Below are positions 10,658-60,240 of a stretch of DNA of 64,000 bases, in pieces. The notes beneath the pieces were generated by a model. It made no database searches and had not been told where the DNA came from. It saw only the letters and a list, made by a program, of their open reading frames with translations. Position numbers and translations under genes: made by a program. The first letter of the stretch is position 1, and the number at the start of each line of letters is the position of its first letter. This DNA is from Patescibacteria group bacterium (GTDB lineage: Bacteria > Patescibacteriota > Patescibacteriia > UBA10025 > JBIOWE01), in the NCBI GenBank assembly GCA_044868145.1, contig JBIOWE010000004.1, positions 203,197 through 267,196 of the forward strand, in the 5' to 3' direction.

Positions 10658-11368
10658 ATGACCTTATTTCGCCCACAAGTAAAAAAAAGCGAGGAACTGA
10701 TTGCAGCCATTCGCAAGTCCGGAACGCATACCCTCAATCCAGATTCAAGAATGAATATACGCTCTGTTGTGTTGCAAACAAACCACACCGTAACAAAGAG
10801 CGACCCCGTTCGGTATAAGAAGCACCCAATCATGGGGATATTAACTCTTAAACTTCGACCTATGACCTTAGTGCTTATTATCATGGCGCTTATTGCGCTC
10901 ACCGGAGGCACGGTGATAGCAGCTGACGCAGCGAAACCCGGTGACTCGCTTTTTGGCATCGATCGCGCTGTCGAACGTGTCCAGCTCAATTTAAGCTTAT
11001 CCGATGTCGCTAGAGCTCGAACACAGGCGGAAATTGCCGAGGAACGCTTGCGCGAACTCCAGGAGCTCCAATCTGGGGAGGATACGGACGAAGAAGATAT
11101 TGACACCGCGGAAAACGAGGCGGACACGGCGTTAAATCAAGCGCAAGATACGCTGGATGATGTCATTGAGAATATGGAATCAAAGGATAATGAACAAGCG
11201 CAGGAACGATTAGAACAAGTTCGGCAAAAATTAGAAGATCTTGATCAGGAACGCGATACTTCCCCCCACACAAATACAGAGGAACCAACCGAAACAAATA
11301 CGGAAAACGATCCATCTTCTTTCCACTCAAACGTGAACGCTCACCAGGAAAACTCAAACAGTCGATAG
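10658..11368 (+). CDS. Putative membrane-anchored anti-sigma factor (one TM, acidic coiled-coil C-terminal domain)
   Basis: It starts 11 nt after the sigma factor stop. It has a single TM helix (LVLIIMALIALTGG) followed by an acidic, coiled-coil-rich extracytoplasmic tail. The call rests on position and topology only. Confidence 0.5.
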   Translation: MTLFRPQVKKSEELIAAIRKSGTHTLNPDSRMNIRSVVLQTNHTVTKSDPVRYKKHPIMGILTLKLRPMTLVLIIMALIALTGGTVIAADAAKPGDSLFGIDRAVERVQLNLSLSDVARARTQAEIAEERLRELQELQSGEDTDEEDIDTAENEADTALNQAQDTLDDVIENMESKDNEQAQERLEQVRQKLEDLDQERDTSPHTNTEEPTETNTENDPSSFHSNVNAHQENSNSR

Positions 11369-11578
11369 GCAACTAAAGAAGGCAGTGTGCAAACTGCACG
11401 GTTAACAATACCTGAACATTACAAAGAAGTAAGAAAAAAGCAGAACATTTTAGAAGGAATATTCCGCGTACCTAGAAAACGGCGCTTGCGCCGTTTTTTA
11501 GATCCTCGACTACATGTCGTTGCAAAAGGAGTCGGGATTTTTTACTTGTGCTAGACAGTTCCTTTTATTATACTGACT

Positions 11579-12007
11579 GTGTCTCCCAACAAAAAACATA
11601 TGCCCAACGATGTGAACGCCAATAACAAAACAAACGCTGAAGTCCAGGAGAACAAGATTTATCTTGGGGACGAAGATATTATCTATGTAGAATATCATGG
11701 ACCCCAGACCTACGAAACCATACATCGCAATTTTGTAAAAATCGAAGAGATAGCAAAGGAGTTGAGGAAAGCTGGAAAGCCAGTAAAACTTTTGAATAAT
11801 ATTGGCGGTGTTACCACGCAAACGATCGGTGCGCGTAAAGCAGGGTTGGAAACCGTACGAAAGATGAAGATAGATGCCATCGCACTGTGTGGAGGCAGTC
11901 GATTCATCAAATACTTGGGCAACTACTTTCTCAAAGCAATTGGTCATCCGAACTCTCGTTCGTTCGACACCCAAGACGAGGCATTCGCATGGCTACGAGA
12001 GGTTTAA
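11579..12007 (+). CDS. STAS/SpoIIAA-like small protein (paralogue of 9611-9973)
   Basis: 142 aa. Homologous to the ORF at 9611-9973 over the C-terminal 90 aa. Sits immediately upstream of the histidine kinase. Confidence 0.6.
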   Translation: MSPNKKHMPNDVNANNKTNAEVQENKIYLGDEDIIYVEYHGPQTYETIHRNFVKIEEIAKELRKAGKPVKLLNNIGGVTTQTIGARKAGLETVRKMKIDAIALCGGSRFIKYLGNYFLKAIGHPNSRSFDTQDEAFAWLREV

Positions 12008-12011
12008 TACT

Positions 12012-13403
12012 ATGGCCCCGCAGTCAAAGCAACTGCCCGCAGAGGAATATCGTAGCTATGTCGTTCGCAGATTGGCTGGCTTAGAGCATTTATTCACGAG
12101 AGCTTCGATCGGCGATTTTTCACAAGACGTCCAATTGCCAAAAGAAGACGATGAGTTCACGACGCTCTATGCAGGTGTCCAAGTGATGATCGAAGCCGTA
12201 CGTGAAAAAGTTGGCGAGCTACAAGAGCTCAACCGACAGTTAACGGGCAAGGTTGGTGAATTACGAGAATTAACAACTCGACTCCGCACAGAACAAGCGC
12301 GGGATCGGGCAATACTGCTCGGGATGGGTGAAGGCTTGGTTGTTGTTGATGAACGCGGGATAATAACCATGGCCAATCAGGCCTTTGAAAGCATGATGGG
12401 TTGGACCAGTCAGGAAGCGATGGGAAAATACTTACCCGACGTGTTACCAGCCCAAGATGAATCTGGCCAGCGTATTCCAAATACTGAGCGGCCATTATCA
12501 AAAGCGTTCAAGATGCACGAAACGATTATGACGGGCGTAGGCGTGAATCCGTATTATTACGTCCGCCGCGATGGGACAAGATTTCCTGTCGCAATTACCG
12601 TCAGTCCATTCATGAGCCGGGGCCGCGTGATTGGCTCCATCAATGTTTTTCGTGATATCACCCGCGAACAGGATATCGACCGAGCGAAGAGTGAATTTGT
12701 GAGCTTAGCGTCGCATCAGTTGCGAACCCCCTTGACCATTATTCGTTGGTCAGCGGATATTTTAAAACGGTATGCCGGAAAATTAAGCCCTCAACAAGAA
12801 AAATACGTCACTGCGGTTGAAGAGGCGGGCCGACAAATGGTTAATCTTGTGGATGCGCTCTTGAATGTTTCTCGAATTGAGGCAGGCAGTCTTCGAATCG
12901 AGCCAAAACCCGTTGACGTAAAAAAACTTGTTGACGGCATTTTACGAGAACTCCAGCCACTGATTGATACGCAACAACTGCGCATGCGAACGCGAGTAGC
13001 AGCGGACCTTCCGAAACTACAGGTCGACCCTGAACTCACGCGTGTCGTCATTCACAATCTCATCACGAATGCCATAAAATATACCAAGCAGCGCGGTCAA
13101 ATTTTCATTACCGTGGCGCGCGACGCCGCAAACATTAAGGTTAGCGTCCGAGATACGGGAGTCGGCATACCGGTCGAGGACCAGCCAAAGATTTTTTCCA
13201 AGCTTTATCGTGCTGAAAATGTTATGCAACTCGAGCCACACGGCACCGGGCTTGGCCTTTATATCGCAAAAGCGGTGGTTGAACAATCAGGCGGCCGCAT
13301 CTGGTTCGAGTCAAAAGAAAATTCTGGGACAACGTTTACCTTCACCTTACCGCTTCGTGGCGTGCAGAAAAAGACTGGAACAAAAATAATCTCTCCGGGC
13401 TAG
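12012..13403 (+). CDS. Cytoplasmic sensor histidine kinase (coiled-coil repeat, PAS, HisKA, HATPase_c)
   Basis: No TM segment. Internal duplication KVGELQELNRQL/KVGELRELTTRL, a PAS-like segment (LVVVDERGIITMANQAFESMMGW), an H-box SHQLRTPLT, and N/G boxes (GTGLGL). The likely start is the ATG at 12012 (MAPQSK); the track ORF starts at 11874 and overlaps the upstream gene. Confidence 0.85.
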   Translation: MAPQSKQLPAEEYRSYVVRRLAGLEHLFTRASIGDFSQDVQLPKEDDEFTTLYAGVQVMIEAVREKVGELQELNRQLTGKVGELRELTTRLRTEQARDRAILLGMGEGLVVVDERGIITMANQAFESMMGWTSQEAMGKYLPDVLPAQDESGQRIPNTERPLSKAFKMHETIMTGVGVNPYYYVRRDGTRFPVAITVSPFMSRGRVIGSINVFRDITREQDIDRAKSEFVSLASHQLRTPLTIIRWSADILKRYAGKLSPQQEKYVTAVEEAGRQMVNLVDALLNVSRIEAGSLRIEPKPVDVKKLVDGILRELQPLIDTQQLRMRTRVAADLPKLQVDPELTRVVIHNLITNAIKYTKQRGQIFITVARDAANIKVSVRDTGVGIPVEDQPKIFSKLYRAENVMQLEPHGTGLGLYIAKAVVEQSGGRIWFESKENSGTTFTFTLPLRGVQKKTGTKIISPG

Positions 13404-13445
13404 CAAGCTGTTGCCCACTGCTTGTAGCTTTGGTATTATAATAAC

Positions 13446-13832
13446 ATGAAGGACAATGGGAGCAAGTCAATATTGATCGTGGAGGACGAGGTCTCACTGC
13501 TTCAGGCATTGGTTGACGTCTTTACCCTGGAAGGGTTCCATGTGTTAAGTGCTGCGAATGGGGCGGAGGGCGTAGAGATAGCAAAACAAAAGCACCCAGA
13601 TTTGATATTGCTCGACATTGTCATGCCAAGACTCGACGGGCTGGGCGTGTTGAAGAAACTTCGCGAAGATTCATGGGGCAAAACCGTACCGGTTATTATG
13701 TTAACGAACCTCTCCGATTATAAAAGCGTCGCTGACGCGCTGAAACACGGCGTGCACGACTTCCTTGTAAAAAGCAATTGGGAGATCGATAAGGTGGTTA
13801 AACTTGTCAAAAGAAAACTTCACACAGGGTAA
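13446..13832 (+). CDS. Single-domain response regulator (CheY-like receiver only)
   Basis: Receiver signature EDE, phospho-acceptor Asp (LILLDIVMP), and a T/K pair. 128 aa with no output domain. Confidence 0.85.
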   Translation: MKDNGSKSILIVEDEVSLLQALVDVFTLEGFHVLSAANGAEGVEIAKQKHPDLILLDIVMPRLDGLGVLKKLREDSWGKTVPVIMLTNLSDYKSVADALKHGVHDFLVKSNWEIDKVVKLVKRKLHTG

Positions 13833-13861
13833 GTGCGTCTAAAACATTAACCTCTATACAT

Positions 13862-14080
13862 ATGGACAACCAACCAGCACAACAAAATCAAGCGCCGCCG
13901 CAGGAGTATCAGACTCCCAAGAAGGGCTATGGCAAGCGCCCGCTATGGCAGTGGATTCTCATTTATGTCGTCGTCGGGGGTATTATCTACGCCGCAATCT
14001 ATTACTTCGTCATTGCTAAAAACGGCAGCTACAATTCGTCAAACACAAATTACAACTACACTACGAACAGCAATTATTAG
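13862..14080 (+). CDS. Small membrane protein (1 TM, N/Y-rich tail), hypothetical
   Basis: 72-aa ORF with the TM segment WILIYVVVGGIIYAAIYYFVI. Confidence 0.4.
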   Translation: MDNQPAQQNQAPPQEYQTPKKGYGKRPLWQWILIYVVVGGIIYAAIYYFVIAKNGSYNSSNTNYNYTTNSNY

Positions 14081-14128
14081 CACAGCCGGAAATATTTGAC
14101 CGAGAGGAAAACTTTGAACAGAGAAAAT

Positions 14129-14590
14129 ATGCCAAAGAAGAAAATAACCATTGATGCGACCGCGGCGACGAGAGAGATTGCTGATGATGTCATGCAGTCG
14201 CCAGACCCGATCCGCGATGTTCAACAGGAAAGCGATTGGATGGACGAGGACTTCTCCGGCCAGCTTGCGGTTGACGTGTACCAGTCGAAAAACAGTATCG
14301 TCATTCGATCAACGATCGCTGGGGTGCGACCTGAAGATATTGACATTGCCATTAATAACGACATGGTAACGATTCGCGGCGTCAGACAGGTAGATGATGA
14401 AGTATCCGACGATCAATACTATTATCGTGAGTGTTACTGGGGCGGATTCTCACGCTCCATTATTCTTCCGGTGGATATCAAAGCCGACGAAGTACGTGCG
14501 CATATGAAGAATGGCGTGCTCACGATTGTGCTCCCGAAAGCCGAAAAGGTCAGCAAGGTGCGCGTCGTGAAAGTACAGGAAGACGAATAG
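14129..14590 (+). CDS. Hsp20/alpha-crystallin family small heat-shock protein
   Basis: Alpha-crystallin domain motifs (AVDVYQS, GVLTIVLPK). The likely start is MPKKK at 14129; the track ORF starts at 14096. Confidence 0.8.
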   Translation: MPKKKITIDATAATREIADDVMQSPDPIRDVQQESDWMDEDFSGQLAVDVYQSKNSIVIRSTIAGVRPEDIDIAINNDMVTIRGVRQVDDEVSDDQYYYRECYWGGFSRSIILPVDIKADEVRAHMKNGVLTIVLPKAEKVSKVRVVKVQEDE

Positions 14591-14597
14591 CAAACAA

Positions 14598-14832
14598 TAT
14601 GACTGGCGAGGGGCAGTACTCACTCAACGTGCGGTTTGTTCGCTACGATGGTTCCTTTGCAATTTTGGAAACCGAGGGCAAGCTTGAATTCCGTTGGCCA
14701 ATTAAAAACCTGCCAGAAAACCTCATGGAGGGCGCAACCGTGCGACTGGTCCTCTCAACCGAGCAAACGGAACAGGCCGAGCGCGAATTGATCGCGAAGA
14801 CACTGATCAACCAGCTGCTCGAGTCAAAGTAA
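14598..14832 (+). CDS. Small DUF3006-like protein
   Basis: 78 aa beginning at the ATG at 14598. The pattern (YDGSFAILETEG...PIKNLPENLMEGATVRL) resembles DUF3006 by memory. It is immediately upstream of the VanW-family gene. Confidence 0.45.
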
Positions 14833-14834
14833 TT

Positions 14835-16652
14835 ATGCCAAGAAAAAAGAAAACACCTGAAGTCCATCATCCGCGAGGTCCGCTCATCGCGGGCGGCGTT
14901 GTTTTTCTCTTGGGTTTGCTCGTTCTTGGTTTTGCATTAGGGCTGCATGCAGTGTATGCAGGTCGAATCCCTCCGGGCGTGGTCATGGGAGATGTAAAGC
15001 TCGCAGGCATGGGATACGATGATGCGCGCAGCGCAATCGAGAAGCGCATGAATGAGATCGTGAACCATGGGCTCGTGTTTTCCTACCAGGGAAAAACATT
15101 TACCGTTCCTTCGACCGACGAAGATCCCGCGAACCCGGAACTCTCGGTCCGAATCTTTTCCTATGATGTTGACGCAACAATGCAAACATTGCAAGAATTC
15201 GTTGAACGTCGCGACGCATTCGATTCGTTGATGGCATCGTTGGCCGGAGCGCAGATGCCGGCAATCGTGCAAGTGGACACGCAGCGTCTTGCCGAAGCAA
15301 TCCAGCATGAGGTAGGCCAGTATGAACAGCATGCGGTCAACAGCCAGCTCATAGTCCATGACGACAACAACACAATATCTCTCACGCCGGAAAGATACGG
15401 AGTCGCGTTCAATTATGACGCGATTGTATCTGATGCGATTAAAAATCTTGTCAGTTTCGTTAACACTCCATATGTGTTGGTACTTGAACAAGACACCCCG
15501 ACCATCTTCGCCGCCGACGCACAGCGGCATCTTGAAGTTGCGAAAACAATACTGAAACAAGCACCCTACACTATTCATTACGAAGACAAAATGTGGGAGA
15601 TTACCTTGGAGAATGTGCGTTCGTGGCTGGGGTTTCGGTACGCCGGCGACCCGCCGCGCCTCATCGCCGGGTTTGCCGAGGAACCGTTGCAAGCATTTCT
15701 CAAAGCGATCGCCCAAGAGGTGAATGTCGAGAAAAAGGAAGTAAAATTCGAAGTCGTAGACAGTCGCGTGGCGAGCTTCCAGCTTCCAACGTCGGGCCTT
15801 ACTGTCGATATCAATGAAACGAGTCAGTTGGTCAACGAGAAAATCCGCCAAGTGGGCATTAAGGAAATTGATCTTATTGTGAAGCGTGATGATCCAGCAA
15901 CAAACGCCGGCGACACGAACGACCTCGGCATCCGCGAGCTTATCGGCGTCGGACAAACGAATTTCAAGGGCAGTCCGAAAAATCGTCGCCATAACATCGC
16001 GGTCGGCGCAAATTCCCTGAACGGGATTCTCATAAAACCCGGCGAGGAATTCTCGCTGCTGAAAGCGCTCGGAAAAATTGAGGCATCAACCGGTTATTTG
16101 CCGGAACTCGTTATCAAAGGCAACCGAACAATTCCGGAGTATGGCGGCGGCCTTTGCCAAATCGGTACGACGTCGTTCCGCGTCGCGCTCAACGCCGGTA
16201 TGCCCATTGTCGCGCGCAGGAACCACTCGTATCGCGTTTCGTATTATGAACCACCGGTTGGGATGGACGCAACGATCTACGATCCCGCGCCGGACTTTAA
16301 GTTTTTGAACGACACGGGCCATTATATTTTGTTCCAAACGGAAATCAAAGCCGACGACTTGATCTTTCGATTCTATGGCACAAAAGATGGCCGTACAGCC
16401 GAAACAACAACACCTCGGGTGTATAATGCGGTGCAACCCGGGCCGACGAAATACATTGAATCAACGGACATACCGGTCGGCACGCAAAAGTGTGTAGAAA
16501 AAGCGCACGTCGGTTCTGACGCGGAGTTTACGTATACGGTAACGTACAGCGATGGCCATCAGAATGTGCAAACATTCACCAGCCACTATAAACCCTGGCA
16601 AGCGGTATGCCTCGTCGGTGTTGAAAAACTTTCCGAGGATCAGGTAAATTAA
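14835..16652 (+). CDS. VanW-family protein (N-terminal TM anchor, C-terminal VanW domain)
   Basis: N-terminal TM helix. The C-terminus carries a VanW-like block (NIAVGANSLNGILIKPGEEFS...GGGLCQIGTTSFRVALNAGMPIVARRNHSYRVSYY). Confidence 0.8.
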   Translation: MPRKKKTPEVHHPRGPLIAGGVVFLLGLLVLGFALGLHAVYAGRIPPGVVMGDVKLAGMGYDDARSAIEKRMNEIVNHGLVFSYQGKTFTVPSTDEDPANPELSVRIFSYDVDATMQTLQEFVERRDAFDSLMASLAGAQMPAIVQVDTQRLAEAIQHEVGQYEQHAVNSQLIVHDDNNTISLTPERYGVAFNYDAIVSDAIKNLVSFVNTPYVLVLEQDTPTIFAADAQRHLEVAKTILKQAPYTIHYEDKMWEITLENVRSWLGFRYAGDPPRLIAGFAEEPLQAFLKAIAQEVNVEKKEVKFEVVDSRVASFQLPTSGLTVDINETSQLVNEKIRQVGIKEIDLIVKRDDPATNAGDTNDLGIRELIGVGQTNFKGSPKNRRHNIAVGANSLNGILIKPGEEFSLLKALGKIEASTGYLPELVIKGNRTIPEYGGGLCQIGTTSFRVALNAGMPIVARRNHSYRVSYYEPPVGMDATIYDPAPDFKFLNDTGHYILFQTEIKADDLIFRFYGTKDGRTAETTTPRVYNAVQPGPTKYIESTDIPVGTQKCVEKAHVGSDAEFTYTVTYSDGHQNVQTFTSHYKPWQAVCLVGVEKLSEDQVN

Positions 16653-17641: not shown

Positions 17642-19138
17642 ATGACCGTCATATTGGAACAATTGAAGAAACGCGTAGACGCTGGCAGTCTTTTTTTTCC
17701 ATTGTTTGAAAAAGAAAAGCCTGAACAAGCAAGCGCATGGCAGATTCTTGACCGAGACGCTCGTCTTGCGGTCAAACGGTCGCTTGGCCATCATTTCACC
17801 GGAAAGCTCGGGGAATCGCACGACATTTTTCTGCGTAGCAAGCGACCCGAAGCTGTTGTTCTTATTGGTCTTGGCCAAAAGAAAGATTGGACCACGCGAC
17901 GGTTTATTCTCATCAGCCGTAAACTCGTCGCGCTCGCAAACAAAAACAAGCAACAAGAAATCGCGGTTCCATTCGATCCAATGGTTCCGGCGAGCGCAGA
18001 GCAAGCTCGCGCCGTACAGTCCTTTGTCGAAGCTCTCCTGATGGCGCAATACGATTTTCGAAGCTATAAAGAACTGCCAAAGCACGGTTGGCCGGACGTT
18101 CGTCGTGTTCGCATATTGTCCGATCACCTCCATAAAGACCGTAAAGCTCAAAGCGCGGTGAAGATGGGAGCAGTGATTGCCAGTGCGGTTAATCATTGTC
18201 GTGACCTTGCGAATACGCCTGGCGGCGACATGACGCCCCGCTTGCTCGCCGAGGACGCACTCAAGACGGGCAAGGCAGCGGGCTTTCGCATCAAAGTACT
18301 TGGCCCAGCGGAGATGAAACGTCTAAAAATGGGCGCCATTCTCGGCGTGGCACGCGGCAGCGTGGAACAAGCGCGGTTCATTATCATGGAATATCGCCAT
18401 GGCGGGTCACAATCACCCATCATATTCGTCGGCAAGGGCGTAACCTTTGATACAGGAGGTCTGAATATTAAGCCGGAGAACTCCATGCTCGATATGCACA
18501 TGGATATGAGCGGTGGAGCAGCAGTGATCGGTGCGCTCGAAGCCATTGCGAAGCTCCGACTCCGCGTGAATGTCATTGGACTGGTGCCAGCAGTGGAAAA
18601 TATGCCCTCAGGGTCGGGTTATCGGCCTGGTGACCTGTTACGATCCATGTCCGGCAAGACAATTGAAGTGAAAAACACCGACGCGGAAGGCCGGGTTATT
18701 CTCGCCGACGCCTTGACCTATGCAAATCGATACAAACCCTCGCACGTCGTTGACCTCGCAACCCTGACTGGCGCGGCAATGGTCGCGCTTGGGCAGCACG
18801 CGGCCGCGTTGCTCACATCCGATGAGCGCTTCGCCAGCCTGTGCCAGGAAACCGGTGAGACGAGTGGCGACTATCTGTGGCGATTACCTTTGTGGGAAGA
18901 ATACGAGGACGAGGTAAAGGGAACATTCGGCGACGTGTCTAATACTGGCAAGACACGATACGGTGGCGCGATTACCGGCGCGATGTTTCTCAAGCAATTC
19001 GTCGGCAAGTACGTATGGGCGCATCTCGACATCGCGCCAACGATGACATCCGTAGATGGCCAGAATCTTGCGAAGGGCGCGACTGGCACGGGCGTTCGCT
19101 TCCTTGTTGAGCTTGCATCGAGACTGAGCCTCAAGTAA
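17642..19138 (+). CDS. pepA: Leucyl aminopeptidase (M17 family)
   Basis: M17 catalytic-domain motifs (VGKGVTFDTGG, NTDAEGRVILADAL). Confidence 0.92.
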   Translation: MTVILEQLKKRVDAGSLFFPLFEKEKPEQASAWQILDRDARLAVKRSLGHHFTGKLGESHDIFLRSKRPEAVVLIGLGQKKDWTTRRFILISRKLVALANKNKQQEIAVPFDPMVPASAEQARAVQSFVEALLMAQYDFRSYKELPKHGWPDVRRVRILSDHLHKDRKAQSAVKMGAVIASAVNHCRDLANTPGGDMTPRLLAEDALKTGKAAGFRIKVLGPAEMKRLKMGAILGVARGSVEQARFIIMEYRHGGSQSPIIFVGKGVTFDTGGLNIKPENSMLDMHMDMSGGAAVIGALEAIAKLRLRVNVIGLVPAVENMPSGSGYRPGDLLRSMSGKTIEVKNTDAEGRVILADALTYANRYKPSHVVDLATLTGAAMVALGQHAAALLTSDERFASLCQETGETSGDYLWRLPLWEEYEDEVKGTFGDVSNTGKTRYGGAITGAMFLKQFVGKYVWAHLDIAPTMTSVDGQNLAKGATGTGVRFLVELASRLSLK

Positions 19139-19142
19139 ACGT

Positions 19143-19502
19143 ATGCATAAAGGTTTATTGATTATTCTTATCACCTTTGGCCTTATTGGTACGGGGATTC
19201 TTGGATTTTTTCTTTTGCAGTCGCCAACCCAGCAATCAACGACAACGAACACCAACGGAAACACGTCCACACAGTTTACGGCATGTGCGACGGACGCGGA
19301 CTGTGTCCTTGTCAATGAAAGTTGTTGTTCATGCGAGAATGGCGGATCAAAAACATGCATTCAGAAGGATTTACAGGCAGAGTGGGAGCGCCGCTTGAAC
19401 TGCGACGCTGCGCAGCCTTACTGTATTACATTGTATCGTTGCGATAGCCAACCAACGTCATGCGACTGCATACAAAACACATGTCAGCCCAAAACAACCT
19501 AA
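19143..19502 (+). CDS. Small secreted or membrane-anchored cysteine-rich protein (12 Cys), hypothetical
   Basis: N-terminal TM/signal segment ([21 protein letters not shown]) and a Thr/Asn-rich linker. The C-terminal 80 aa contain 12 cysteines. Confidence 0.5.
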
Positions 19503-20521
19503 AACCCGAACGAATTGTCCTTGGCAATGAAGGTCAGGAAGATACCGTTTTAGATGTGACGCTTCGGCCAAGCAGCCTGAACGAATTTGTCGGTCAAAGC
19601 AAACTCAAAGAAAATTTGCGTATTTTTGTTGGCGCAGCAAAGAAACGGAAGCAATCACTTGAGCACGTGTTGTTTTATGGCCCCCCAGGAATAGGCAAAA
19701 CAACGCTCGCCCATATCATCGCCCATGAGATGGGTAAAAGCATTCGTGTCACGAGCGGCCCGGCTATAGAACGCGCCGGCGATCTAGGCGCCATCCTGAC
19801 AAACTTGGAGGACGGCGACATCTTGTTTATCGACGAAATCCACCGTCTGAATCGTCTTATCGAAGAGGTGCTGTACCCCGCTATGGAAGAATACTCGCTC
19901 GATATTATCACCGGCAAAGGCCCGGCCGCGGATACTGTACGACTCGACCTGCCGCATTTCACGCTGGTTGGTGCAACAACCAAACCGAGCTTACTGTCGT
20001 CGCCACTGCGCGACCGGTTCGGTATGACCTATAGAATCGATTTTTACGATGATGCCGACATTGAGCAGATTCTGGATCGGTCGAGCCATATTCTTGGTAT
20101 CTCGCTCGGCTCAGGCGCTTCCGAGGAGATCGCCAAACGCTCGAGAAAAACGCCGCGCATCGCAAACCGTTTACTCAAACGCGTGCGCGACTTCGCAGAA
20201 ATGAAGCATGGCGGCGCTGTAACCGCTGCCGTGGCGCAGGACGCCTTGGCGCGCCTGGAAATAGATGAGCGAGGACTTGATGACCTTGACCGAAAAATCC
20301 TTCGCACGATTGTTGAAAAATTTGGCGGTGGGCCCGTTGGTGTCACGACAATAGCGCAGTCCGTTGCCGAAGACCGTGCCACCATTGAAGACGTCTATGA
20401 GCCGTTTTTAATGCAGCTAGGGTTTTTGGCGCGCACCTCGCGCGGCCGCGTGGTCACTGAATCTGGTTATCGGCATATCGGTAAGGAATCGCCCGGAGAT
20501 TTGCAAAAACGATTGATATAA
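19460..20521 (+). CDS. ruvB: Holliday junction branch migration helicase RuvB
   Basis: AAA+ Walker A ([15 protein letters not shown]), sensor motifs and a winged-helix C-terminus. The start may be the second ATG at 19481 (MSAQNN). Confidence 0.93.
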
Positions 20522-20524
20522 AAA

Positions 20525-20560
20525 ACGCCAGAATGAATTATTATGTTCTGGCGTCTTGGT
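20525..20560. terminator. Bidirectional intrinsic terminator (ACGCCAGAA...TTCTGGCGT), strongest on the minus strand
   Basis: GC-rich 9-bp stem with AAAAA on one side and CTTGGTT on the other, between ruvB (+) and the minus-strand ORF ending at 20580. Confidence 0.7.
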
Positions 20561-20579
20561 TACGAGCCGCGACTATTTT

Positions 20580-20918
20580 TCACTTTACGGTCCATGTCCT
20601 CTTCTCCATGTGCCCTCCTTTGTATAGTAGGCTGTTTAAGACTACTGGGAGACGTGGGAATTGGAAATGCGCACACGTGGCGTCTTCGCAGATAGAGATC
20701 AGCACTTCTTTGCCTTCAGCAATAATGTACCCAAAAAGAAGTTGCCGTTTATCGTTTTCGCAGTGCACGCACTTCGGTGGAACGAATGTAACCGCAAATA
20801 TCTCGTGCGGTAACGTTCGGACTACTTGATTGTTGGGTAGGCCTCCATTGTAGACCACTGCAATGAATCTCAGCGATTCTTCAACGGTCATTTTCTCCTG
20901 CTTTATCATGGTGACCAC
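20580..20918 (-). CDS. Hypothetical protein with two Cys pairs (CVHC...CEDATC), possible zinc ribbon
   Basis: 112-aa ORF followed by a terminator on its own strand. Confidence 0.45.
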   Translation of the reverse strand: MVTMIKQEKMTVEESLRFIAVVYNGGLPNNQVVRTLPHEIFAVTFVPPKCVHCENDKRQLLFGYIIAEGKEVLISICEDATCAHFQFPRLPVVLNSLLYKGGHMEKRTWTVK

Positions 20919-21123
20919 CTCTTTCTCTCACGCGGCTCGTATCTTTCTATTATGAAAGAGCATATTCAACAGTACTCCTAGACCATCATCATTGTCAAAC
21001 ATACATAGTGGATAACTGGAAAGTGCTCATTCTTGTTATTGTGGCCCAAGAGGCGAAAGTTGCATCTTGTATTCAACCAGCATTCGTTTCCAACGCAACG
21101 TGCGTTTGCTATACTGAAGCCGT

Positions 21124-21372
21124 ATGACCATTGCCTATTCCGTTTTTCTGATCATCTACCTCGCGATCGTGGCGTTTTTTTTATTGTTTTCTACGTTTAA
21201 TATCTATAATATCGTCCGGTTCGGCTACATGCAGCGCACTGCCGTGATGGTTACGCTCGCTTACCTTCTCCTCGTCGCGGGCATCATGGTTGCTACATGG
21301 GGATTGTTACGTGAGATCAACTGGACGAATACATTAGAAATCGGATCACCATTCACGCAAATAACTGAGTAA
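21124..21372 (+). CDS. Small membrane protein (2 TM), hypothetical
   Basis: 82-aa ORF with two hydrophobic helices. It sits directly upstream of the PH-domain membrane protein and may form a pair with it. Confidence 0.5.
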   Translation: MTIAYSVFLIIYLAIVAFFLLFSTFNIYNIVRFGYMQRTAVMVTLAYLLLVAGIMVATWGLLREINWTNTLEIGSPFTQITE

Positions 21373-21374
21373 CT

Positions 21375-21944
21375 ATGGAATTTCCCGGCCAATTACCGAA
21401 TGAGCGCGTGATTCTGCTGGTGCGAAGGCACACCTTCGTTCTTATTCGTCAGGTGCTCCTTTTAGTTATCGCCATGCTACTTCCCTTGGTCGTGTCTTAT
21501 TTCTTACAGAACTATACGACCGTTACACAAGATCCAACGAGTCTCTTGTATCTTTTGATCGTGCTCGGGGGCAGCGTGTATTATTTATTTATTATCTTAT
21601 TTTTATTCTCTTCGTGGGTTGATTACTACCTCGACATTTGGGTTGTCACGAGCGACCGTATTGTCAGCATTGAGCAGAAAGGCCTGTTTTCGCGAACCGT
21701 CGGAGAGCTGAAGCTGTATAGAGTTCAAGACGTAACGTCAAACGTCCGCGGGTTTTTACCCACCATGTTTCGGTATGGGGACGTGCGCATAGAAACCGCG
21801 GGCGAGCAAAGCCAGTTCACTTTTGAGCAGGTGCCGCATCCTGAACAAGTCGCAAAAATCATTATGGAAGCGCATGACCGATCTATGCAAGAAAAAGGCA
21901 TACAGGTTGATGGCATGGCGCAGGTTCAACAAACAAAAAAATAA
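21375..21944 (+). CDS. Bacterial PH-domain (bPH_2, YdbS/YdbT-like) membrane protein
   Basis: Two TM helices followed by a PH-like segment (DRIVSIEQKGLFSRTVGELKLYRVQDV...FRYGDVRIETAG). Confidence 0.65.
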   Translation: MEFPGQLPNERVILLVRRHTFVLIRQVLLLVIAMLLPLVVSYFLQNYTTVTQDPTSLLYLLIVLGGSVYYLFIILFLFSSWVDYYLDIWVVTSDRIVSIEQKGLFSRTVGELKLYRVQDVTSNVRGFLPTMFRYGDVRIETAGEQSQFTFEQVPHPEQVAKIIMEAHDRSMQEKGIQVDGMAQVQQTKK

Positions 21945-22015
21945 TGCGAAGAGTCACCGCAAACGTCGCTTAGCGTCTTTATTCTTCCAAAAGCGTCTTC
22001 ATCCGACTGGCATGG

Positions 22016-22046
22016 GTCGCCCCGCCACATCGGCGGGGCCTATTTG
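22016..22046. terminator. Hairpin GCCCCGCC-acatc-GGCGGGGC downstream of the repeat-protein gene
   Basis: 8-bp GC stem followed by an A/T-rich stretch, lying between convergent genes. Confidence 0.5.
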
Positions 22047-22076
22047 GTATATTGAAGGTTATTTCGTCGAGAGAGC

Positions 22077-22748
22077 TTAATCTTCCAGTAAGGTTTTCAT
22101 GCGACTGGCCTGGGCGGCAAACGCGCCCCAGTAATTTTTGTCGCGTTTTGCCTGTAATTCTTGTGCTATTTGTTCCCAGTCCCGGGCAGTTAAGCGCACG
22201 GCTCGAAACTTCTTCGGATCGATATGTTTCATATTCGCTGCGTGTTTCGTAAACTTGCCGGTAATATCCTGGTCTTTGAGGTCATTGAGCTTGCCAAGCA
22301 TGCCTTTCCATTCTTTTTCGCCGATAGTAATTGTTTGAAAACGCTCGGGGTCAAGTCGTTTAAGATGCGTTGCGTGCGCAGCGTAATTTTGCCAGTTACT
22401 GAACACTGCGAATTTTTTTAAAGCGACCATCATTTCTTTCCAGTCGTTTTCCGCGATGGTAATGTTGGCGAACCGTTGTTCATCAATCGGTTTCATGCGT
22501 GCGGCGCGCGCAGTGAACGCGAACCAGTCCTTGTTGGCTTTGTATTTTTCTAACTCGCGCGTCATTGCGTTCCATTGGTCGTCGGTAATGGTAATGTCTT
22601 TGCGAAAACGTTCCGGATTAATGTTCGCCATGCGCGCGGCATGCCACGTGAAATCACGCCAAAACCTGCCTCGAAGGTAATTCTCCGCCTCGGTTTTCAT
22701 GTTTTGCCAGTCCTTTTCCGTGATGTTGAATACGCTTGGTTGCGACAT
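22077..22748 (-). CDS. Tandem-repeat protein: five consecutive 44-aa repeats (I-T-I-x-E-x-D-W ... H-A-A-x-M-K-x-I-D-P-E-R-F), hypothetical
   Basis: The translation divides cleanly into 5 units with conserved W, W/F, HAA, MK and DPERF positions. No family recognised. Confidence 0.6.
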   Translation of the reverse strand: MSQPSVFNITEKDWQNMKTEAENYLRGRFWRDFTWHAARMANINPERFRKDITITDDQWNAMTRELEKYKANKDWFAFTARAARMKPIDEQRFANITIAENDWKEMMVALKKFAVFSNWQNYAAHATHLKRLDPERFQTITIGEKEWKGMLGKLNDLKDQDITGKFTKHAANMKHIDPKKFRAVRLTARDWEQIAQELQAKRDKNYWGAFAAQASRMKTLLED

Positions 22749-22887
22749 ATCTTGTATTATACCTGTCCTGGCAGATCTTTTGAACTGCCGTGCCTGGGTA
22801 CAGATGCGGTATCTATAAAATCAACCCAGAAGGTACTTGCCTTGCCTGGGGTGAGATTGCCGATGACCGAAGCGATCCCTCGTAACT

Positions 22888-23133
22888 TCAGATGCTTGAT
22901 AAGGTTGGCGGAGAGACGGACTCTCCAGGCGCAAGTGAAGCAGCGCCGTATGAGCCAACAAAGCCGGTTTGTATGAGCACGGTCGGTGTTTGCGTATTCT
23001 GATATGATTCGCTTCGAGCTGCTCCGTCTGGGTTATCGGAAGAATACGCGCCTTCTTGGTTCAAGAGAATGAAGGCAGCGACAAGGAAGACCATCATAAC
23101 GGTAAGGAGTGGGCTAATGTGCTTTTTGCGCAT
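22888..23133 (-). CDS. Small putative secreted protein (81 aa), hypothetical
   Basis: N-terminal hydrophobic segment. No SD. Low support. Confidence 0.25.
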   Translation of the reverse strand: MRKKHISPLLTVMMVFLVAAFILLNQEGAYSSDNPDGAARSESYQNTQTPTVLIQTGFVGSYGAASLAPGESVSPPTLSSI

Positions 23134-23393
23134 AAAAACGAAAAAAGTGTTTATCGATCCCCATAGATATAAACACCTTCATATCTGAAGTTATTCGTGC
23201 TGGTTTTTGTTTTGTGTTTTTGAGACCGCTTTGGTCTGAAAACTCCGTTGAAGGTCTTGGGAGTCGATTTTTATTTTTGTTTGTGGAACAACAAGTGTTC
23301 TACTATGTATGATAGCAAATTTTTTCCGCGTTGTCAATGGCATCGAAACATGATAGCATACAGAAATAGAGACGCCAGCTGTCATAGGATAGA

Positions 23394-24863
23394 TTGCGTC
23401 TCTCGTTTTTCTCAAGGACCATGTCGTATACACGACGAATTGCGCATAATACAATCATTCAGATTATTGGTAAGGCGATTAGTACAGCAATCGGCGTTTT
23501 TGTTATTGCACTCCTGACCAGATATCTCGGTCGCGCCGGCTTTGGGCAGTACTATACGATTCTCGCTTTCCTCCAGATTTTCGGAGTCATCGTCGACATG
23601 GGGTTGTATATTATATTGATAAAGAAAATGTCAGAGCCTGGTACCGATCGCGACGTTCTGGCGAGCAACATCTTCACGCTCCGATTCATTTCCGCTTTTG
23701 TCTTGCTCGGACTCGCACCACTTGCCGTTTTATTTTTCCCTTACCCGGCAATTGTAAAAACCGGCGTGCTTATCGCAACGCTTTCCTATTTTGCCATTAC
23801 GCTCAATCAAACACTCACGGGTGTTTTTCAGGTTCATTTACAAATGTATAAGACGGCCACTGCTGAAGTGGTCGGCAGGATAGTTCTTCTGCTCGGAACC
23901 ATTTACGTCATTCGACAAGACGCCGGGCTTCTATGGGTGATGGTTGTCGTCGTACTCGGTAGCCTTCTGAATTTTTTCATAACATTTGCATACGCCAAGA
24001 AACTCGTGCGCATTCGCCCACGTTTCGACCTTCACCTTTGGAAGGATATTCTGCGTGAGTCATGGCCTATCGCGCTTTCGATTATCTTTAATCTTGTTTA
24101 TTTTAAAGCAGATACGATCATCCTCTCTCTTTACAAAGGAGCGGACGAGGTTGGCATCTATGGCGCAAGCTATCGAGTGCTTGAAGTACTCATCACGTTT
24201 CCCGCCATGTTTGCCGGGCTGGTGACGCCACTGCTCGCCTCGAGCTGGGCTGCGCAGGACCGCGAACGATTCAAGCGAGTGTTGCGTAAGGGATTCGACT
24301 TCATGGCCATGATCGCAATTCCACTCGTCGTTGGCACGATCTTTCTCGCCACACCCGTGATGAATCTCGTTGCACCATCATTTACGAATGCAGATAAAGT
24401 CCTACGCATCTTGATTGTAGCGACCGCTACCATTTTTATCGGAAACTTATTCGGGAACACCGTTGTGGCGCTCAATAAACAAAAAACAATGATGTGGCTG
24501 TATATTGTCGTGGCAGTGGTGTCTCTCGTCGGCTATTTAGTGCTTATTCCACGTTTTTCCTATTTCGGAGCGGCAGCGATGACCGTTGCTTCAGAGCTGA
24601 TGGTAACGATTGCAGCGCTCGTTATCGTTGGCGTCACGTCGCGCATCTGGCCATCATTTGTTTTATTCGGTAAATCGTTGATTGCCGCGGGCGTCATGGC
24701 GATTGCTCTGTCGTTCCTACAATCGTGGAATCTTTTCCTTTTGATTGTTATTGCATTAGTCGTGTATTCCGTTATGCTCTTCCTGCTTCGAGCAATTTCA
24801 AAAGAAACAATCTATGAAATCTTGCGACTGCGTGGTGGTGATAACCAGGCGACGCCCGTATGA
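23394..24863 (+). CDS. Polysaccharide biosynthesis flippase (Wzx-like, MOP superfamily)
   Basis: About 12 TM helices with an N-terminus typical of oligosaccharide flippases. The true start may be at 23421 (MSYTRR). Confidence 0.75.
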   Translation: MRLSFFSRTMSYTRRIAHNTIIQIIGKAISTAIGVFVIALLTRYLGRAGFGQYYTILAFLQIFGVIVDMGLYIILIKKMSEPGTDRDVLASNIFTLRFISAFVLLGLAPLAVLFFPYPAIVKTGVLIATLSYFAITLNQTLTGVFQVHLQMYKTATAEVVGRIVLLLGTIYVIRQDAGLLWVMVVVVLGSLLNFFITFAYAKKLVRIRPRFDLHLWKDILRESWPIALSIIFNLVYFKADTIILSLYKGADEVGIYGASYRVLEVLITFPAMFAGLVTPLLASSWAAQDRERFKRVLRKGFDFMAMIAIPLVVGTIFLATPVMNLVAPSFTNADKVLRILIVATATIFIGNLFGNTVVALNKQKTMMWLYIVVAVVSLVGYLVLIPRFSYFGAAAMTVASELMVTIAALVIVGVTSRIWPSFVLFGKSLIAAGVMAIALSFLQSWNLFLLIVIALVVYSVMLFLLRAISKETIYEILRLRGGDNQATPV

Positions 24864-26002
24864 TGAACGTTCTTATCTTAAAATTTCCCTACCAGTCACT
24901 ATTTGGCGGTGGCGAATGGCACACGTTGAAACTCGTGGAAGGGTTGCAACTCAAAGGCTACCGATTCTTCCTTGCTTCATCGTGTCCGGTGTTGTTGCGG
25001 GAATTCGCGAAGCGCCGCTGGCCGACAAAACGCTTCTGGGCTGGCAAAGAGCCGGTCAGCATGGGCGCGCTCATCTTGTTTCCGTTCACGCTACCATTCG
25101 TCGTTATTGCGCTCTTTGCTCTGCTTTTATATTACCGTGTGGCCAAGCGGGTCAAGGTGGTGTACTGTATGCAACTAACGGAAAAAATATTACTGGCGCC
25201 GTTCGCGCGAATGCTCGGTATGCGTGTTATTTGGATTGAGCACGTGACCCCTGGTCGTTGGTTTAGGGCAAATCCCCTCAAAGCACTCTATCGACGGTGC
25301 GCGCGTCTTGTAACCATTGTTGTTATCTCTGATATTATCAAAAAAGAGTATGCCGATCTGGGCGTGCCTGCGGATCGCATGGTCAGAATTTATCCGGGCG
25401 TGGATAGCGCGCACATCAAACAAAAGCAAGTTTATTGGGACAAGCCCAATCGTTTGATCGTGGGCGTGGTCGCTCGCCTTGTGCAAGAAAAGGGCATTGA
25501 ATTTTTCTTGCAAGCGCTAAAAATCGTCCGCGACATTATTCCGAATGCTCAAGCCATTGTCGTGGGTGACGGACCGGAACGAGAAAAACTTGAATGGCTA
25601 AGTCGCCAGCTGCAGTTGAAAGAGCATGTGCAATGGGTAGGCTACCAGCAGGACGTTGAGCAATGGTATAGTTATTTCGATATGTTCGTGTTGCCATCGG
25701 TCGTGCGCGAGTCGTTCGGCATTGTGCTTGTTCAGGCGATGGCAGCGGGCGTGCCAGTCATCGGCTCTCGCCTTGGGGGCATACGTGAAATTATCGATGA
25801 TGGCAGCACAGGCCTTCTGGCGGAGCCCGGCTCGAGCCAGTCGATAGCGGATTGCATCATGCGTTTGTATACAGACAAAGCGCTGACGCAGTCAATCGTG
25901 TCTGCGGCACATGAAAAGGTTCAGCAATCATTTAGTATAGATTCAATGCTTCGCGATTTTTCGATTATTTTTTCAGGCAAACACCATGGACCACGCGATT
26001 GA
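24860..26002 (+). CDS. Glycosyltransferase family 4 (GT-B fold)
   Basis: GT4 C-terminal motif (ESFGIVLVQAMAAGVPVIGSRLGGIREIIDDGSTGLL). Start overlaps the flippase stop by 4 nt. Confidence 0.85.
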   Translation: MMNVLILKFPYQSLFGGGEWHTLKLVEGLQLKGYRFFLASSCPVLLREFAKRRWPTKRFWAGKEPVSMGALILFPFTLPFVVIALFALLLYYRVAKRVKVVYCMQLTEKILLAPFARMLGMRVIWIEHVTPGRWFRANPLKALYRRCARLVTIVVISDIIKKEYADLGVPADRMVRIYPGVDSAHIKQKQVYWDKPNRLIVGVVARLVQEKGIEFFLQALKIVRDIIPNAQAIVVGDGPEREKLEWLSRQLQLKEHVQWVGYQQDVEQWYSYFDMFVLPSVVRESFGIVLVQAMAAGVPVIGSRLGGIREIIDDGSTGLLAEPGSSQSIADCIMRLYTDKALTQSIVSAAHEKVQQSFSIDSMLRDFSIIFSGKHHGPRD

Positions 26003-27458
26003 ACTTCCGCATAAACAAAAGTATCTCTTGGTCGGTGCTGCGCTTCTGGCCGCTCTGATGCTTAGTGTGCTTAACGCGTTTACGCCCCCATTATTTTTTC
26101 TCGCGGGACTGGCGTTTATCGCGCTTGCCGTTCTGATATTCCGTTCGCCTCTTTTTGGCATCGCAATCGTTGGCTTTTTGCTGCCGTTTGAGCGTATAGG
26201 CGCATACGAACTTGGTAGAACGACAGTTCGATTAAGCCAGGTTTTTCTCATTGTTACTATCGCAGCGTTTCTTGCGTACGTAGTACGTAAGCGTGATCGC
26301 TTCATTGGCTCGAACCCGCTGCTCATCGCGCTACTTTTGTTTATCGCGGCGAACGTGTTGTCATTGGTGAATACCGTCAACCTTACTCGGTCCGTTTTTG
26401 TGCTCATATTTACTGCTTTCACGGTGGTTCTTGCCTGGCTTGTGCCGGCTATCGTCAAAACGCAGAGATCCATTCGAACAATCATTCTCGTGTTGCTCGC
26501 AAGTTGCTTCTTGGTAAGCGCGTTCGGTATTTTTCAATTTTTTGGAGACATGGTTGGCCTGCCGACGTCCATCACCGGCCTGCGTGATCTCTATACAAAA
26601 GACGTGCTGGGGTTCCCGCGTGTGCAATCCACGGCGTATGAACCACTGTATTTTGCCAATTACCTTTTACTGCCTCTCAGTCTCGCATTCGCACTTTTTT
26701 TATCGAAACGACAGCAATTGAAATCATCCTGGCTCCTGATCATACTTATTCTCGGAACGGCGAGCTTTGTCCTTACCGTATCGCGCGGGGGCTACATCGC
26801 GTTTACTGTCTCCATGCTCGTGATTTGTATCGCGTATTTTCGTAAAGTGTTTCGGCTGCGCAACATCGTCATATTTGTGGCTGCCACGACCTTCCTTTGG
26901 TGGTTTGTGGTGAAAGCGCTCGGTTTTGGCGGCGGCCTCTTTACTCTCGATACGTTTAAAGAACATGTGGGCAATGTGTTTTATGGCGCCTCATTTAATG
27001 AGCGCGTGTATACGCTCGAGCAAGCCCAAACTGCATTTCGCGAGCACCCCCTTGTTGGTATCGGCGTCGGCGCGTTTGGTCCGTATGTTGCGCCCCATCC
27101 ATATTACATGCCGAAAGATGGCTGGAAAATCGTGAACAACGAGTTCGTTGAGATTCTTGCGGAAACGGGCTTGCTCGGTTTTCTTACGTTTTTTCTTGTT
27201 GTGCTCGTTCTCATCGTGCGCTCGATTAAGGCGATTTTGAGATCACGTGACCCGTACTTGAAAGCTATTATGGTTGCGTTGTTCGCGGCATTTATCGGCG
27301 TGCTCGTACAATACCAAACATTCTCCACGCTCTATATTATGCATGTATGGTTTTTGATTGGTTTGATGGTGGCGGCGCAGAATATAATCCTGGAAGGGGC
27401 AACCCTTCGGGTTTCCCCTTCCCACGCCTCCCCTTCCTCTCCCGAGATGAAAGCTTGA
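25986..27458 (+). CDS. O-antigen ligase/polymerase-like membrane protein (Wzy_C domain), copy 1
   Basis: Polytopic membrane protein with a Wzy_C-like motif (LTVSRGGYIAFTVSML). Confidence 0.7.
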   Translation: MDHAIELPHKQKYLLVGAALLAALMLSVLNAFTPPLFFLAGLAFIALAVLIFRSPLFGIAIVGFLLPFERIGAYELGRTTVRLSQVFLIVTIAAFLAYVVRKRDRFIGSNPLLIALLLFIAANVLSLVNTVNLTRSVFVLIFTAFTVVLAWLVPAIVKTQRSIRTIILVLLASCFLVSAFGIFQFFGDMVGLPTSITGLRDLYTKDVLGFPRVQSTAYEPLYFANYLLLPLSLAFALFLSKRQQLKSSWLLIILILGTASFVLTVSRGGYIAFTVSMLVICIAYFRKVFRLRNIVIFVAATTFLWWFVVKALGFGGGLFTLDTFKEHVGNVFYGASFNERVYTLEQAQTAFREHPLVGIGVGAFGPYVAPHPYYMPKDGWKIVNNEFVEILAETGLLGFLTFFLVVLVLIVRSIKAILRSRDPYLKAIMVALFAAFIGVLVQYQTFSTLYIMHVWFLIGLMVAAQNIILEGATLRVSPSHASPSSPEMKA

Positions 27459-51292: not shown

Positions 51293-51411
51293 TCCCTTAA
51301 GTGACCTTTGACAATGAACATGTGACAGGAACCTGGTATGTAACCCATACCAGTCGGGAACGTCATAGTTGAAGCAATGAGCGATGGTGAATGCCATCCT
51401 TATTGTTTCTT

Positions 51412-52921
<1,510 letters not shown>

Positions 52922-53115
52922 AGGGAGAATAATGATTGTTTGTCGACATCAGCTCTGCTGATGACTTTAGTTCGTGGGCGTTCCCATTCTTGTCACATTT
53001 TCATTGCCAAAACCTCGACACGTTCGAGGTAAACCAAAACACATTGGCTTTACAATGCCAATGTTTTTTGTTAGCATGGAACAGTAATTGGCAAAATGAC
53101 CCCGCATAAAAATTT

Positions 53116-53190
53116 GGGTGCGTAGCTCAGTGGTAGAGCACGTCACTGATAATGACGGGGTCGGAGGTTCGATCCCTCCCGCACCCACCA
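53116..53190 (+). tRNA. tRNA-Ile (anticodon GAT), CCA encoded, in the 16S downstream spacer
   Basis: GGGTGCGTAGCTCAGTGGTAGAGCACGTCACTGATAATGACGGGGTCGGAGGTTCGATCCCTCCCGCACCCACCA. Anticodon loop CTGATAA. Confidence 0.9.
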
Positions 53191-53196
53191 ACCCCA

Positions 53197-53440
53197 AATT
53201 TTGTACGGGGCAAGTAATGACGAGGTTTAAGGTCTCAGGCCTGTCCCGTAAAAACGAGCATAGCGAATTTTGTGCGGGATTCGAATCCTGAGCCGCCCAC
53301 CGAGGGTGAAAAGAGCGCGCTTGCCCCGCAGGCGAGCGACGTAAAGTCGCGTTGCGACCACGTCGCTCTACGCGAAGCGAATTGTGCGGGGTCACTGATA
53401 ATGACGAGGTCGTCCCGCCAAGGCGGACCGTACCCACCAG
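53197..53440 (+). repeat. Three tRNA-Ile-derived degenerate repeats (AATTTTGTRCGGGG...TAATGACGAGGT) flanking a stem-loop-rich 150-nt insert that contains a GGATTCGAATCC T-loop-like palindrome
   Basis: Copies start at 53197, 53266 and 53379. The third reproduces the tRNA-Ile anticodon arm (GTCACTGATAATGAC) and 3' terminus (ACCCACCA) but has a non-tRNA hairpin in place of the T-arm. Strong hairpin GAGCGACG...CGTCGCTC at 53325-53369. Confidence 0.5.
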
Positions 53441-53467
53441 TGAGGATTATTATAAAAACCACAAAGT

Positions 53468-53539
53468 GCCGAGGTAGCTCAGTGGTAGAGCGCTGCCCTG
53501 AAGAGGCAGGCGTGGCCAGTTCGATTCTGGCCCTCGGCA
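53468..53539 (+). tRNA. tRNA-Phe (anticodon GAA), no CCA encoded
   Basis: GCCGAGGTAGCTCAGTGGTAGAGCGCTGCCCTGAAGAGGCAGGCGTGGCCAGTTCGATTCTGGCCCTCGGCA. Anticodon stem CTGCC/GGCAG, loop CTGAAGA. Confidence 0.85.
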
Positions 53540-60059: not shown

Positions 60060-60131
60060 TCGGGGAGACAGGATTCGAACCTGCGACCCCTCGCTCCCAA
60101 AGCGAGTGCGCTACCGCTGCGCCACTCCCCG
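60060..60131 (-). tRNA. tRNA-Pro (anticodon TGG)
   Basis: Minus strand: CGGGGAGTGGCGCAGCGGTAGCGCACTCGCTTTGGGAGCGAGGGGTCGCAGGTTCGAATCCTGTCTCCCCGA. Confidence 0.85.
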
Positions 60132-60240
60132 ATGTTCCTTAATGCCGCCGGTCGTAATCCCCGCCTGCACGACGTTTCGGCGGGGGAACGTATATTTTCA
60201 CGTTCCGGGGCAAGCGAACCGACGTTATTTGTCACCGAAA

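Follow-up and report, generated by a model that had tools for sequence, protein, structure and literature searches.

A single-copy, five-unit helical repeat protein of a Patescibacteria genome belongs to an uncurated family and is predicted to resemble alpha/alpha toroids

The gene described here lies on the minus strand of a 64,000-nucleotide stretch of a Patescibacteria group bacterium genome (GenBank assembly GCA_044868145.1, contig JBIOWE010000004.1, positions 203,197 to 267,196; the whole stretch is hereafter the window) and encodes a protein of 223 amino acids (aa) built from five diverged tandem units; the coordinates of the gene, its units and the other features are collected in the table below. 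The 223-aa sequence shows neither a signal peptide nor a membrane segment, and it has no cysteine. Motif position and the starts of the orthologues place the true start at the ATG at 22748-22746. The public gene call on an identical contig (Logan SRR30692719_15832; the NCBI contig is 414 kb) begins instead at M17, which yields a 207-aa product and removes the first conserved Trp of unit 1 (region 22701-22748, minus strand). We consider the upstream ATG correct because the unit-1 motif NITEKDW, which carries the most conserved Trp of the family (W14) and precedes M17, contains E11, D13 and W14, all three invariant across orthologues that themselves begin at the equivalent position. The -10 box of a promoter-like site (22756-22761) ends 7 nt before this ATG, with no Shine-Dalgarno sequence, and at L004 and L011-L014, five of the six orthologous loci, a TATAAT-like box precedes the ATG by 5-8 nt, likewise with no Shine-Dalgarno sequence. 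As the box adjoins the start codon and the Shine-Dalgarno sequence is missing, this suggests a leaderless-type transcript with its own promoter, and a hairpin between the repeat gene and the convergent bPH_2 gene is a probable terminator.

The repetition is evident in the protein itself, which scored against itself with BLOSUM62 reaches 150 at an offset of 44 residues (41 identities in 179 positions) and 43 at an offset of 88, whereas the best offset in 2000 shuffled copies averages -44 (sd 11.5, maximum 8). An independent unit profile draws on 369 units from 144 other proteins and, to avoid circularity, leaves out the target and its close relatives; it scores the protein at 198.6 bits over five domains (residues 7-50, 53-95, 97-139, 141-183 and 185-220), against at most 6.5 bits for shuffled copies. 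At the DNA level, identity at an offset of 132 nt is 43%, compared with 26-29% at neighbouring offsets, and Tandem Repeats Finder saw no repeat of this period, thus the duplication is old and the conservation lies at the protein level. An earlier note on this DNA, made from the sequence alone, had called the repeat genuine at the protein level and no artefact of low complexity, which these figures bear out. Its five units, the last truncated, also stand, but the exact split into 44-residue units that it described does not, as a 6-residue lead-in precedes unit 1 and unit 1 has 45 residues; the protein terminates in ...MKTLLED. The residues it listed as invariant (W...W/F...HAA.MK.IDPERF) are mostly not so: the five units agree fully only at W8 and A31 (unit numbering), unit 4 lacks the second Trp (position 24), position 27 is aromatic throughout (F or Y), and HAA.MK and IDPERF describe a consensus only. 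Unit 4 carries an orthologue-invariant DIxGKFTK motif, and unit 5 stops where longer relatives run on into a C-terminal extension.

Seven orthologues, 55-60% identical to the target, were found: P0155 on locus L004, and one on each of six metagenome loci (L010-L015). All are solitary and all occupy the same syntenic position, in eight genomes including that of the window. Six of the seven are 222 aa long with five units; the L004 orthologue is 204 aa, an internal deletion of 18 aa having taken away the last part of unit 2 and the first part of unit 3. Between the target and L004, the sole pair tested, the proportion of non-synonymous differences (pN) is 0.27 and that of synonymous differences (pS) 0.80, the latter saturated. 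The gene is real, under purifying selection in this pair, and conserved as coding in relatives, the lack of which the earlier note would have taken as a refutation. A chance or non-functional reading frame could be argued from the different start of the public gene call and from the absence of the exact 223-aa or 207-aa product from the protein collection searched, yet it is refuted by the seven orthologues, by synonymous sites that are saturated while non-synonymous change stays low, by hundreds of family members and by a structure model of high confidence (predicted local distance difference test, pLDDT, 96.6), and we give it a probability close to nil. Invariant residues number 82 across all eight sequences and cluster in units 1, 2 and 5 and in part of unit 4; unit 5 exhibits the highest share of invariant residues and unit 3 is the most variable. 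The invariant polar residues include H36, H128, D32, D161 and D177. Binding of nucleic acid was considered and set aside, as the isoelectric points of the orthologues (6.3-9.6) show no consistent basic character.

We compared the protein with curated libraries by hmmscan, at E <= 10 for the whole protein and each unit and at E <= 0.01 for 66 relatives. The earlier note had recognised no known repeat family, and this holds for the ones it named: the Pfam models of TPR, Sel1 and PPR match neither the target, nor its single units, nor the 66 family members. Pfam, NCBIfam, PHROGs, PADLOC and PDB sequences returned nothing significant for the whole protein or single units. NCBIfam has no match on the repeat region in ten family members, 14 members give only isolated matches at E >= 7e-4 in PHROGs, and PADLOC gives only sub-threshold matches. 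With the target as query, no match was obtained in a word-indexed search of 5.8e9 proteins, nor in a scan of genome contigs with the target alone. Family profiles match no solved structure, no description of the family was found in the literature, and the search of phage proteins that the earlier note had proposed brought no relative in viral contigs (IMG/VR) or viral structure models (BFVD). Matches to Usp-48 (E 5.7e-4), DUF7167 (E 2e-3) and phrog_9965, all below curated cut-offs and covering 24-29 residues, were rejected, since among the 66 family members the target alone produces them.

The repeat belongs to a distinct family absent from curated libraries. An exhaustive search of 1.84 billion representatives with a profile of the five units yielded 238 proteins at E <= 1e-3, of which 90 reach E <= 1e-10, so the family comprises at least 238 clusters at 50% identity. 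In the word-indexed collection a 44-column profile recovered one 51-aa fragment, and an alignment of 149 sequences recovered nine proteins, this being the search that yielded P0155 and P0153-P0156. Most members are longer than the target (265-300 aa) and five units are modal; five are detectable in 82 of 107 complete-looking members of 200-320 aa and more than five in none, and with five units in six of seven orthologues as well, the L004 deletion apart, repeat number does not vary, a point that the earlier note had proposed to check. From the best 150 matches of the unit-profile search, the unit consensus is INITEEDWQGMKEELEKYRKNNDWGDFASQAMRMKILDPEKFKK and the spacing mode is 43 aa, with the conserved pattern W-x2-M-x3-L-x3-R ... 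W-x2-F-x3-A-x2-MK-IL-x-P. The only polar positions conserved family-wide are R19, K35 and R/K41, and position 30 is variable (Q 29%, L 23%, H 13%). The target contains five consecutive units matching the unit profile, by which membership of the family is defined. Longer, multi-block proteins also occur, as does P0072, which has a lysine-rich tail and two blocks of units, and in P0033 and P0108 a LysR helix-turn-helix and substrate-binding domain is fused to exactly five units. These fusions are Arg/Ala-rich in sequence, so the module probably extends beyond candidate-phyla bacteria, and judging from their architecture it can serve as an accessory domain of a regulator.

Table. Features of the window and of the loci of array-forming relatives (positions are those of the window unless a locus is named)
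Feature	Coordinates	Strand	Details
Repeat-protein coding sequence	22077..22748	-	223 aa; stop 22077-22079; from open reading frame list and translation
Unit 1	22596..22730	-	Residues 7-51, 45 aa; model helices 11-26, 30-43, 45-51
Unit 2	22464..22595	-	Residues 52-95; model helices 56-71, 75-85, 90-93
Unit 3	22332..22463	-	Residues 96-139; model helices 100-115, 119-132, 134-137
Unit 4	22200..22331	-	Residues 140-183; model helices 144-159, 163-176, 178-181
Unit 5, truncated	22080..22199	-	Residues 184-223, 40 aa; model helices 188-203, 207-221
Promoter-like site	22756..22784	-	TTCAAA-17 nt-TATAAT; consensus scan
G+C-rich hairpin (probable terminator)	22019..22039		8 G-C pairs; between convergent repeat gene and bPH_2 gene
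SpoIID-gene N-terminal remnant	22772..23133	-	tblastn of relatives' SpoIID proteins
RuvB gene	19460-20521
bPH_2 gene	21375-21944
16S rRNA gene, complete, then two tRNA genes	51410-53539
Four clustered tRNA genes	60060-60881	-	Within ca. 820 bases
Array locus L006	26-11257		Candidatus Staskawiczbacteria
Array locus L007	7578-11667		Candidatus Staskawiczbacteria
Array locus L008	81-10822		Candidatus Staskawiczbacteria
Array locus L009	195-5173		Candidatus Staskawiczbacteria
Mobile-type genes flanking L006 array	11368-15679
Mobile-type genes flanking L007 array	5543-6943

With the 149-sequence family alignment, five AlphaFold2 models agree (pLDDT 96.4-96.6, predicted template-modelling score 0.92) and predict with high confidence a wholly helical repeat of hairpins whose curvature is toroid-like. 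In the model, helix A of a unit spans 16 residues, helix B 11-15 and helix C 4-7, helix C being absent from unit 5. The closest folds are the thioester domains of CD109, C3d, C4d and C5 (structural scores 8.4-9.6; 180-188 of 223 residues aligned at a root-mean-square deviation (rmsd) of 3.2-3.5 A), followed by transcobalamin and relatives (8.0-8.6), GH105 (7.9), squalene-hopene cyclase (7.9), N-acylglucosamine 2-epimerase (7.8) and geranylgeranyltransferase beta (7.3), whilst open ARM-like or designed solenoids score at most 7.3 over fewer aligned residues, those of ARM type reaching no more than 6.9. The helical hairpin array that the earlier note had suggested is thus right as to the unit, each being a hairpin, but the modelled assembly most resembles an alpha/alpha toroid and not an open array. 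An earlier single-sequence model (pLDDT 64.8), for which Foldseek gave non-significant TPR and 14-3-3 matches, is superseded. Family position statistics give helix A a single hydrophobic stripe (W8, M11, L15) on an otherwise E/K/D/Q-rich surface, and helix B hydrophobic or small residues on several faces (W24, F27, A31 in 92%, M34, I36, L37), which fits a placement of helix B inside the toroid. Circumstantial support for a closed or otherwise size-defined module comes from a unit number fixed at five in orthologues, family and fusions, and from the strong conservation of units 5 and 1.

An open alpha-solenoid adaptor of TPR, Sel1 or ARM/HEAT type, binding partners along its groove, would share much with the target: these proteins are likewise tandem arrays of helical units (34-47 aa) that act as binding scaffolds, and ARM repeats likewise have three helices per ca. 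42 aa. However, no model of these families matches, their structural scores lie below those of toroids, the conserved pattern is distinct and the unit number is fixed at five; nor does the target combine a model match with the open right-handed superhelix of ca. 42-47-aa units that distinguishes ARM/HEAT proteins. We regard the adaptor as rather unlikely.

The toroids nearest in fold differ from the target in several respects. The thioester domain of complement C3/C4/C5, CD109 and alpha-2-macroglobulin shares 5-8% sequence identity with it, has six hairpins with no recognisable sequence repeat where the target has five repeated units, and carries a CGEQ thioester, which the target, having no cysteine, cannot form; almost certainly the two are analogues at the level of the fold alone. 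Prenyltransferase beta subunits and the squalene-hopene and terpene cyclases are alpha/alpha toroids too, and among the toroids they come nearest to the target in that their repeats are about 44-48 aa long. From the target there is no sequence match to their models (PF00432, PF13243, PF13249), a distinction with no profile-profile comparison behind it; they have six hairpins to the five of the target, which is without QW, DxDD or zinc-ligand motifs, and they are far larger than its 223 aa with minimal loops. De novo designed closed helical repeat proteins, comprising toroids and pseudocyclic proteins, have been described (PMC10643118); compared with these, the target is natural, diverged and under purifying selection, and its closure is putative.

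Could the protein nonetheless be a miniature toroid enzyme, or a small-molecule- or metal-binding protein, in the manner of terpene cyclases, prenyltransferases, LanC or transcobalamin? Its site would consist of inner-helix residues, those at unit position 30 (H36, H125, H169, Q213 and R81), together with other conserved His and Asp. The fold matches are to ligand-binding and catalytic toroids, H36, H128, D32, D161 and D177 are invariant among orthologues, and the fusion of the five-unit module to the LysR-type regulators makes ligand sensing plausible. Yet none of the three polar positions conserved family-wide suggests a catalytic site, position 30 varies within the family, cysteine is lacking, and none of the models Prenyltrans, SQHop_cyclase and LANC was reported to match; moreover, the minimal loops offer little material for a pocket and a five-helix inner barrel with Ala contacts would probably be free of cavities. 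This explanation is unlikely in our view.

We propose, with a probability of roughly 0.5, that the protein is a toroid-like, cytoplasmic, non-enzymatic binding module of five hairpins, in a core-only branch of the uncurated family. It would be a small, all-helical protein of five diverged 43-44-residue units, placed in the cytoplasm because no signal or membrane segment is visible. In each unit helix A would be long and amphipathic, helix B more hydrophobic and helix C short, and the role of the conserved residues is presumably structural in the main: W8, M11 and L15 would form the buried stripe of helix A, W24, F27, A31, M34 and I/L36-37 would line helix B, and Pro39 would close the unit. The pattern of aromatic, aliphatic and Ala residues would make up the inter-repeat core. 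In the predicted arrangement five hairpins stand side by side and form a ring or near-ring that resembles an alpha/alpha toroid, the B helices lying on the inner side, where the near-invariant Ala would permit their close approach. The result would be a rigid module for binding a protein, a peptide or a small ligand, mainly through units 4, 5, 1 and 2, a putative surface placed there because the residues invariant specifically among orthologues concentrate in those units.

The gene neighbourhood adds a weak hint. On one side, in synteny, lie RuvB and then a small membrane protein and a bPH_2 protein, itself a membrane protein (with QueA also, in relatives), convergent with the repeat gene; on the other, divergent, lie a Wzx-like flippase, a GT4 glycosyltransferase and a Wzy_C protein, and the neighbourhood in relatives also includes DUF2079. 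In five relatives a SpoIID-domain protein of 645-686 aa (Pfam) is encoded directly upstream on the same strand. Such a conserved neighbourhood may point faintly to a role in cell-envelope biogenesis. In the window genome the SpoIID gene appears to have been deleted, leaving an N-terminal remnant that corresponds to residues 1-70 and ca. 100-136 and includes an 81-aa open reading frame (ORF) at 22888-23133; as only such remnants are left in the window and the repeat gene is intact, the latter persists without SpoIID. RuvB and bPH_2 of the window are singletons at 90% identity among ca. 15 billion proteins, so no close sequenced relative of the window genome is represented there; the RuvB proteins of the nearest orthologous loci found are 67-71% identical.

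Several points weigh against the proposal of a non-enzymatic binding module with an envelope role. The binding function is argued from the fold class and from an absent catalytic signature, with no characterised homologue to lean on, and the orthologue-invariant His, Asp and Glu residues would be compatible with a catalytic or metal site. The rmsd of 3.2-3.5 A to six-hairpin toroids fits a C-shaped five-sixths of a ring as well as a closed ring of five hairpins, which would turn 72 degrees per unit. Synteny among close relatives may be inherited gene order in place of a functional link, the adjacent SpoIID gene has been lost whilst the repeat gene has not, and RuvB and QueA are also among the neighbours.

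The longer relatives exhibit a different organisation. They carry an N-terminal extension (consensus ...NPDRINIHELTxEEPEK..LPFDPERDIT) and a C-terminal one (consensus MKILAAEKVEVTDxGLEITMPK....PxPExKxF), both missing from the target and its orthologues, and were located in two Candidatus Staskawiczbacteria genomes (Parcubacteria group) as tandem arrays of ca. 5 to 15 paralogues, short ORFs with the terminal motifs alone included; two further metagenome contigs hold arrays of 3-4 paralogues. The shared motifs, 'FNPDxxNIHELTxEEPEK' (N-terminal) and 'PxIPExKxF' (C-terminal), also occur on short ORFs that have no repeat. A VWA protein of 725-730 aa lies within the arrays at two of the four Staskawiczbacteria loci, and an AAA_5 (MoxR-like) ATPase of 737 aa at one of these two as well; the embedded AAA_5 protein ends in VPEIRKF and the VWA protein starts with MVFNPDKSEP, both similar to the shared motifs. 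The flanks of the arrays carry genes for a large serine recombinase and for two DNA methylases, one of which has an N-terminal ParB domain, as well as a terminase-like gene; this gene content suggests integrated mobile elements, with the arrays on them or next to them.

Ternary MoxR-vWA conflict systems whose third component is variable and all-helical (VMAP) have been described (PMC7159879), in a text with no mention of Parcubacteria or Patescibacteria. What they resemble is the array-forming relatives only, a likeness in gene content: AAA_5 and VWA genes among tandem all-helical paralogues. The target might, by extension, be a component of a biological conflict or a mobile element, as an immunity, decoy or effector-adaptor protein, a case for which the arrays of 3 to ca. 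15 paralogues, the embedded AAA_5/VWA proteins and the recombinase, terminase-like and ParB-methylase genes nearby would all speak. The window gene, however, has neither terminal motif and is the single family member in the window, where phmmer with the array-associated queries found no AAA_5 or VWA homologue; Pfam found no VWA, and no AAA+ other than RuvB, in the ten neighbouring ORFs (17642-27458), so that no adjacent pair of MoxR-type AAA+ and vWA genes accompanies it. Housekeeping synteny in eight genomes, vertical inheritance that is stable within the clade, purifying selection, the lack of copy-number variation, the absence of a PADLOC match (the array loci are likewise unmatched) and of relatives in viral contigs also argue against it, and for the target we think a conflict role very unlikely. 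By our analysis such a role is plausible for the array-forming subfamily and not for the solitary window gene, which on gene content is solitary and single-copy and represents the core-only branch of a repeat family that is distinct, uncurated and part of the helical-hairpin/toroid class.

A bolder reading, which we hold only tentatively and which is doubtful as a whole, is that a natural pseudo-five-fold closed toroid has founded a superfamily, and that the Parcubacteria arrays, in which the module between its short conserved N- and C-terminal peptides would have been amplified, constitute with their MoxR-type AAA+/VWA pair an undescribed diversifying system, perhaps for host interaction, immunity or chaperone-assisted assembly, with the window gene as its housekeeping, core-only cousin. 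Natural alpha/alpha toroids rarely retain a readable sequence repeat; if closure were true, a five-hairpin protein of 223 aa would be a minimal natural closed helical repeat, useful for tracing the origin of the fold by duplication and as a design scaffold. Defining the family would annotate many 'hypothetical proteins' that Pfam, NCBIfam, PHROGs and PADLOC do not see. The organisms named for it are Parcubacteria only (candidate phyla radiation), and the MoxR/VWA arrays would point to an unexplored system in host-attached organisms; the window gene taken alone promises a modest return as long as it has neither partner nor ligand.

Elsewhere in the window lies a complete 16S rRNA gene (51410-52919) with two tRNA genes after it, and as the 10.5 kb that remain after this stretch contain no 23S gene, the rRNA genes seem to be unlinked. 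Four further tRNA genes form a compact cluster on the minus strand nearer the end of the window.
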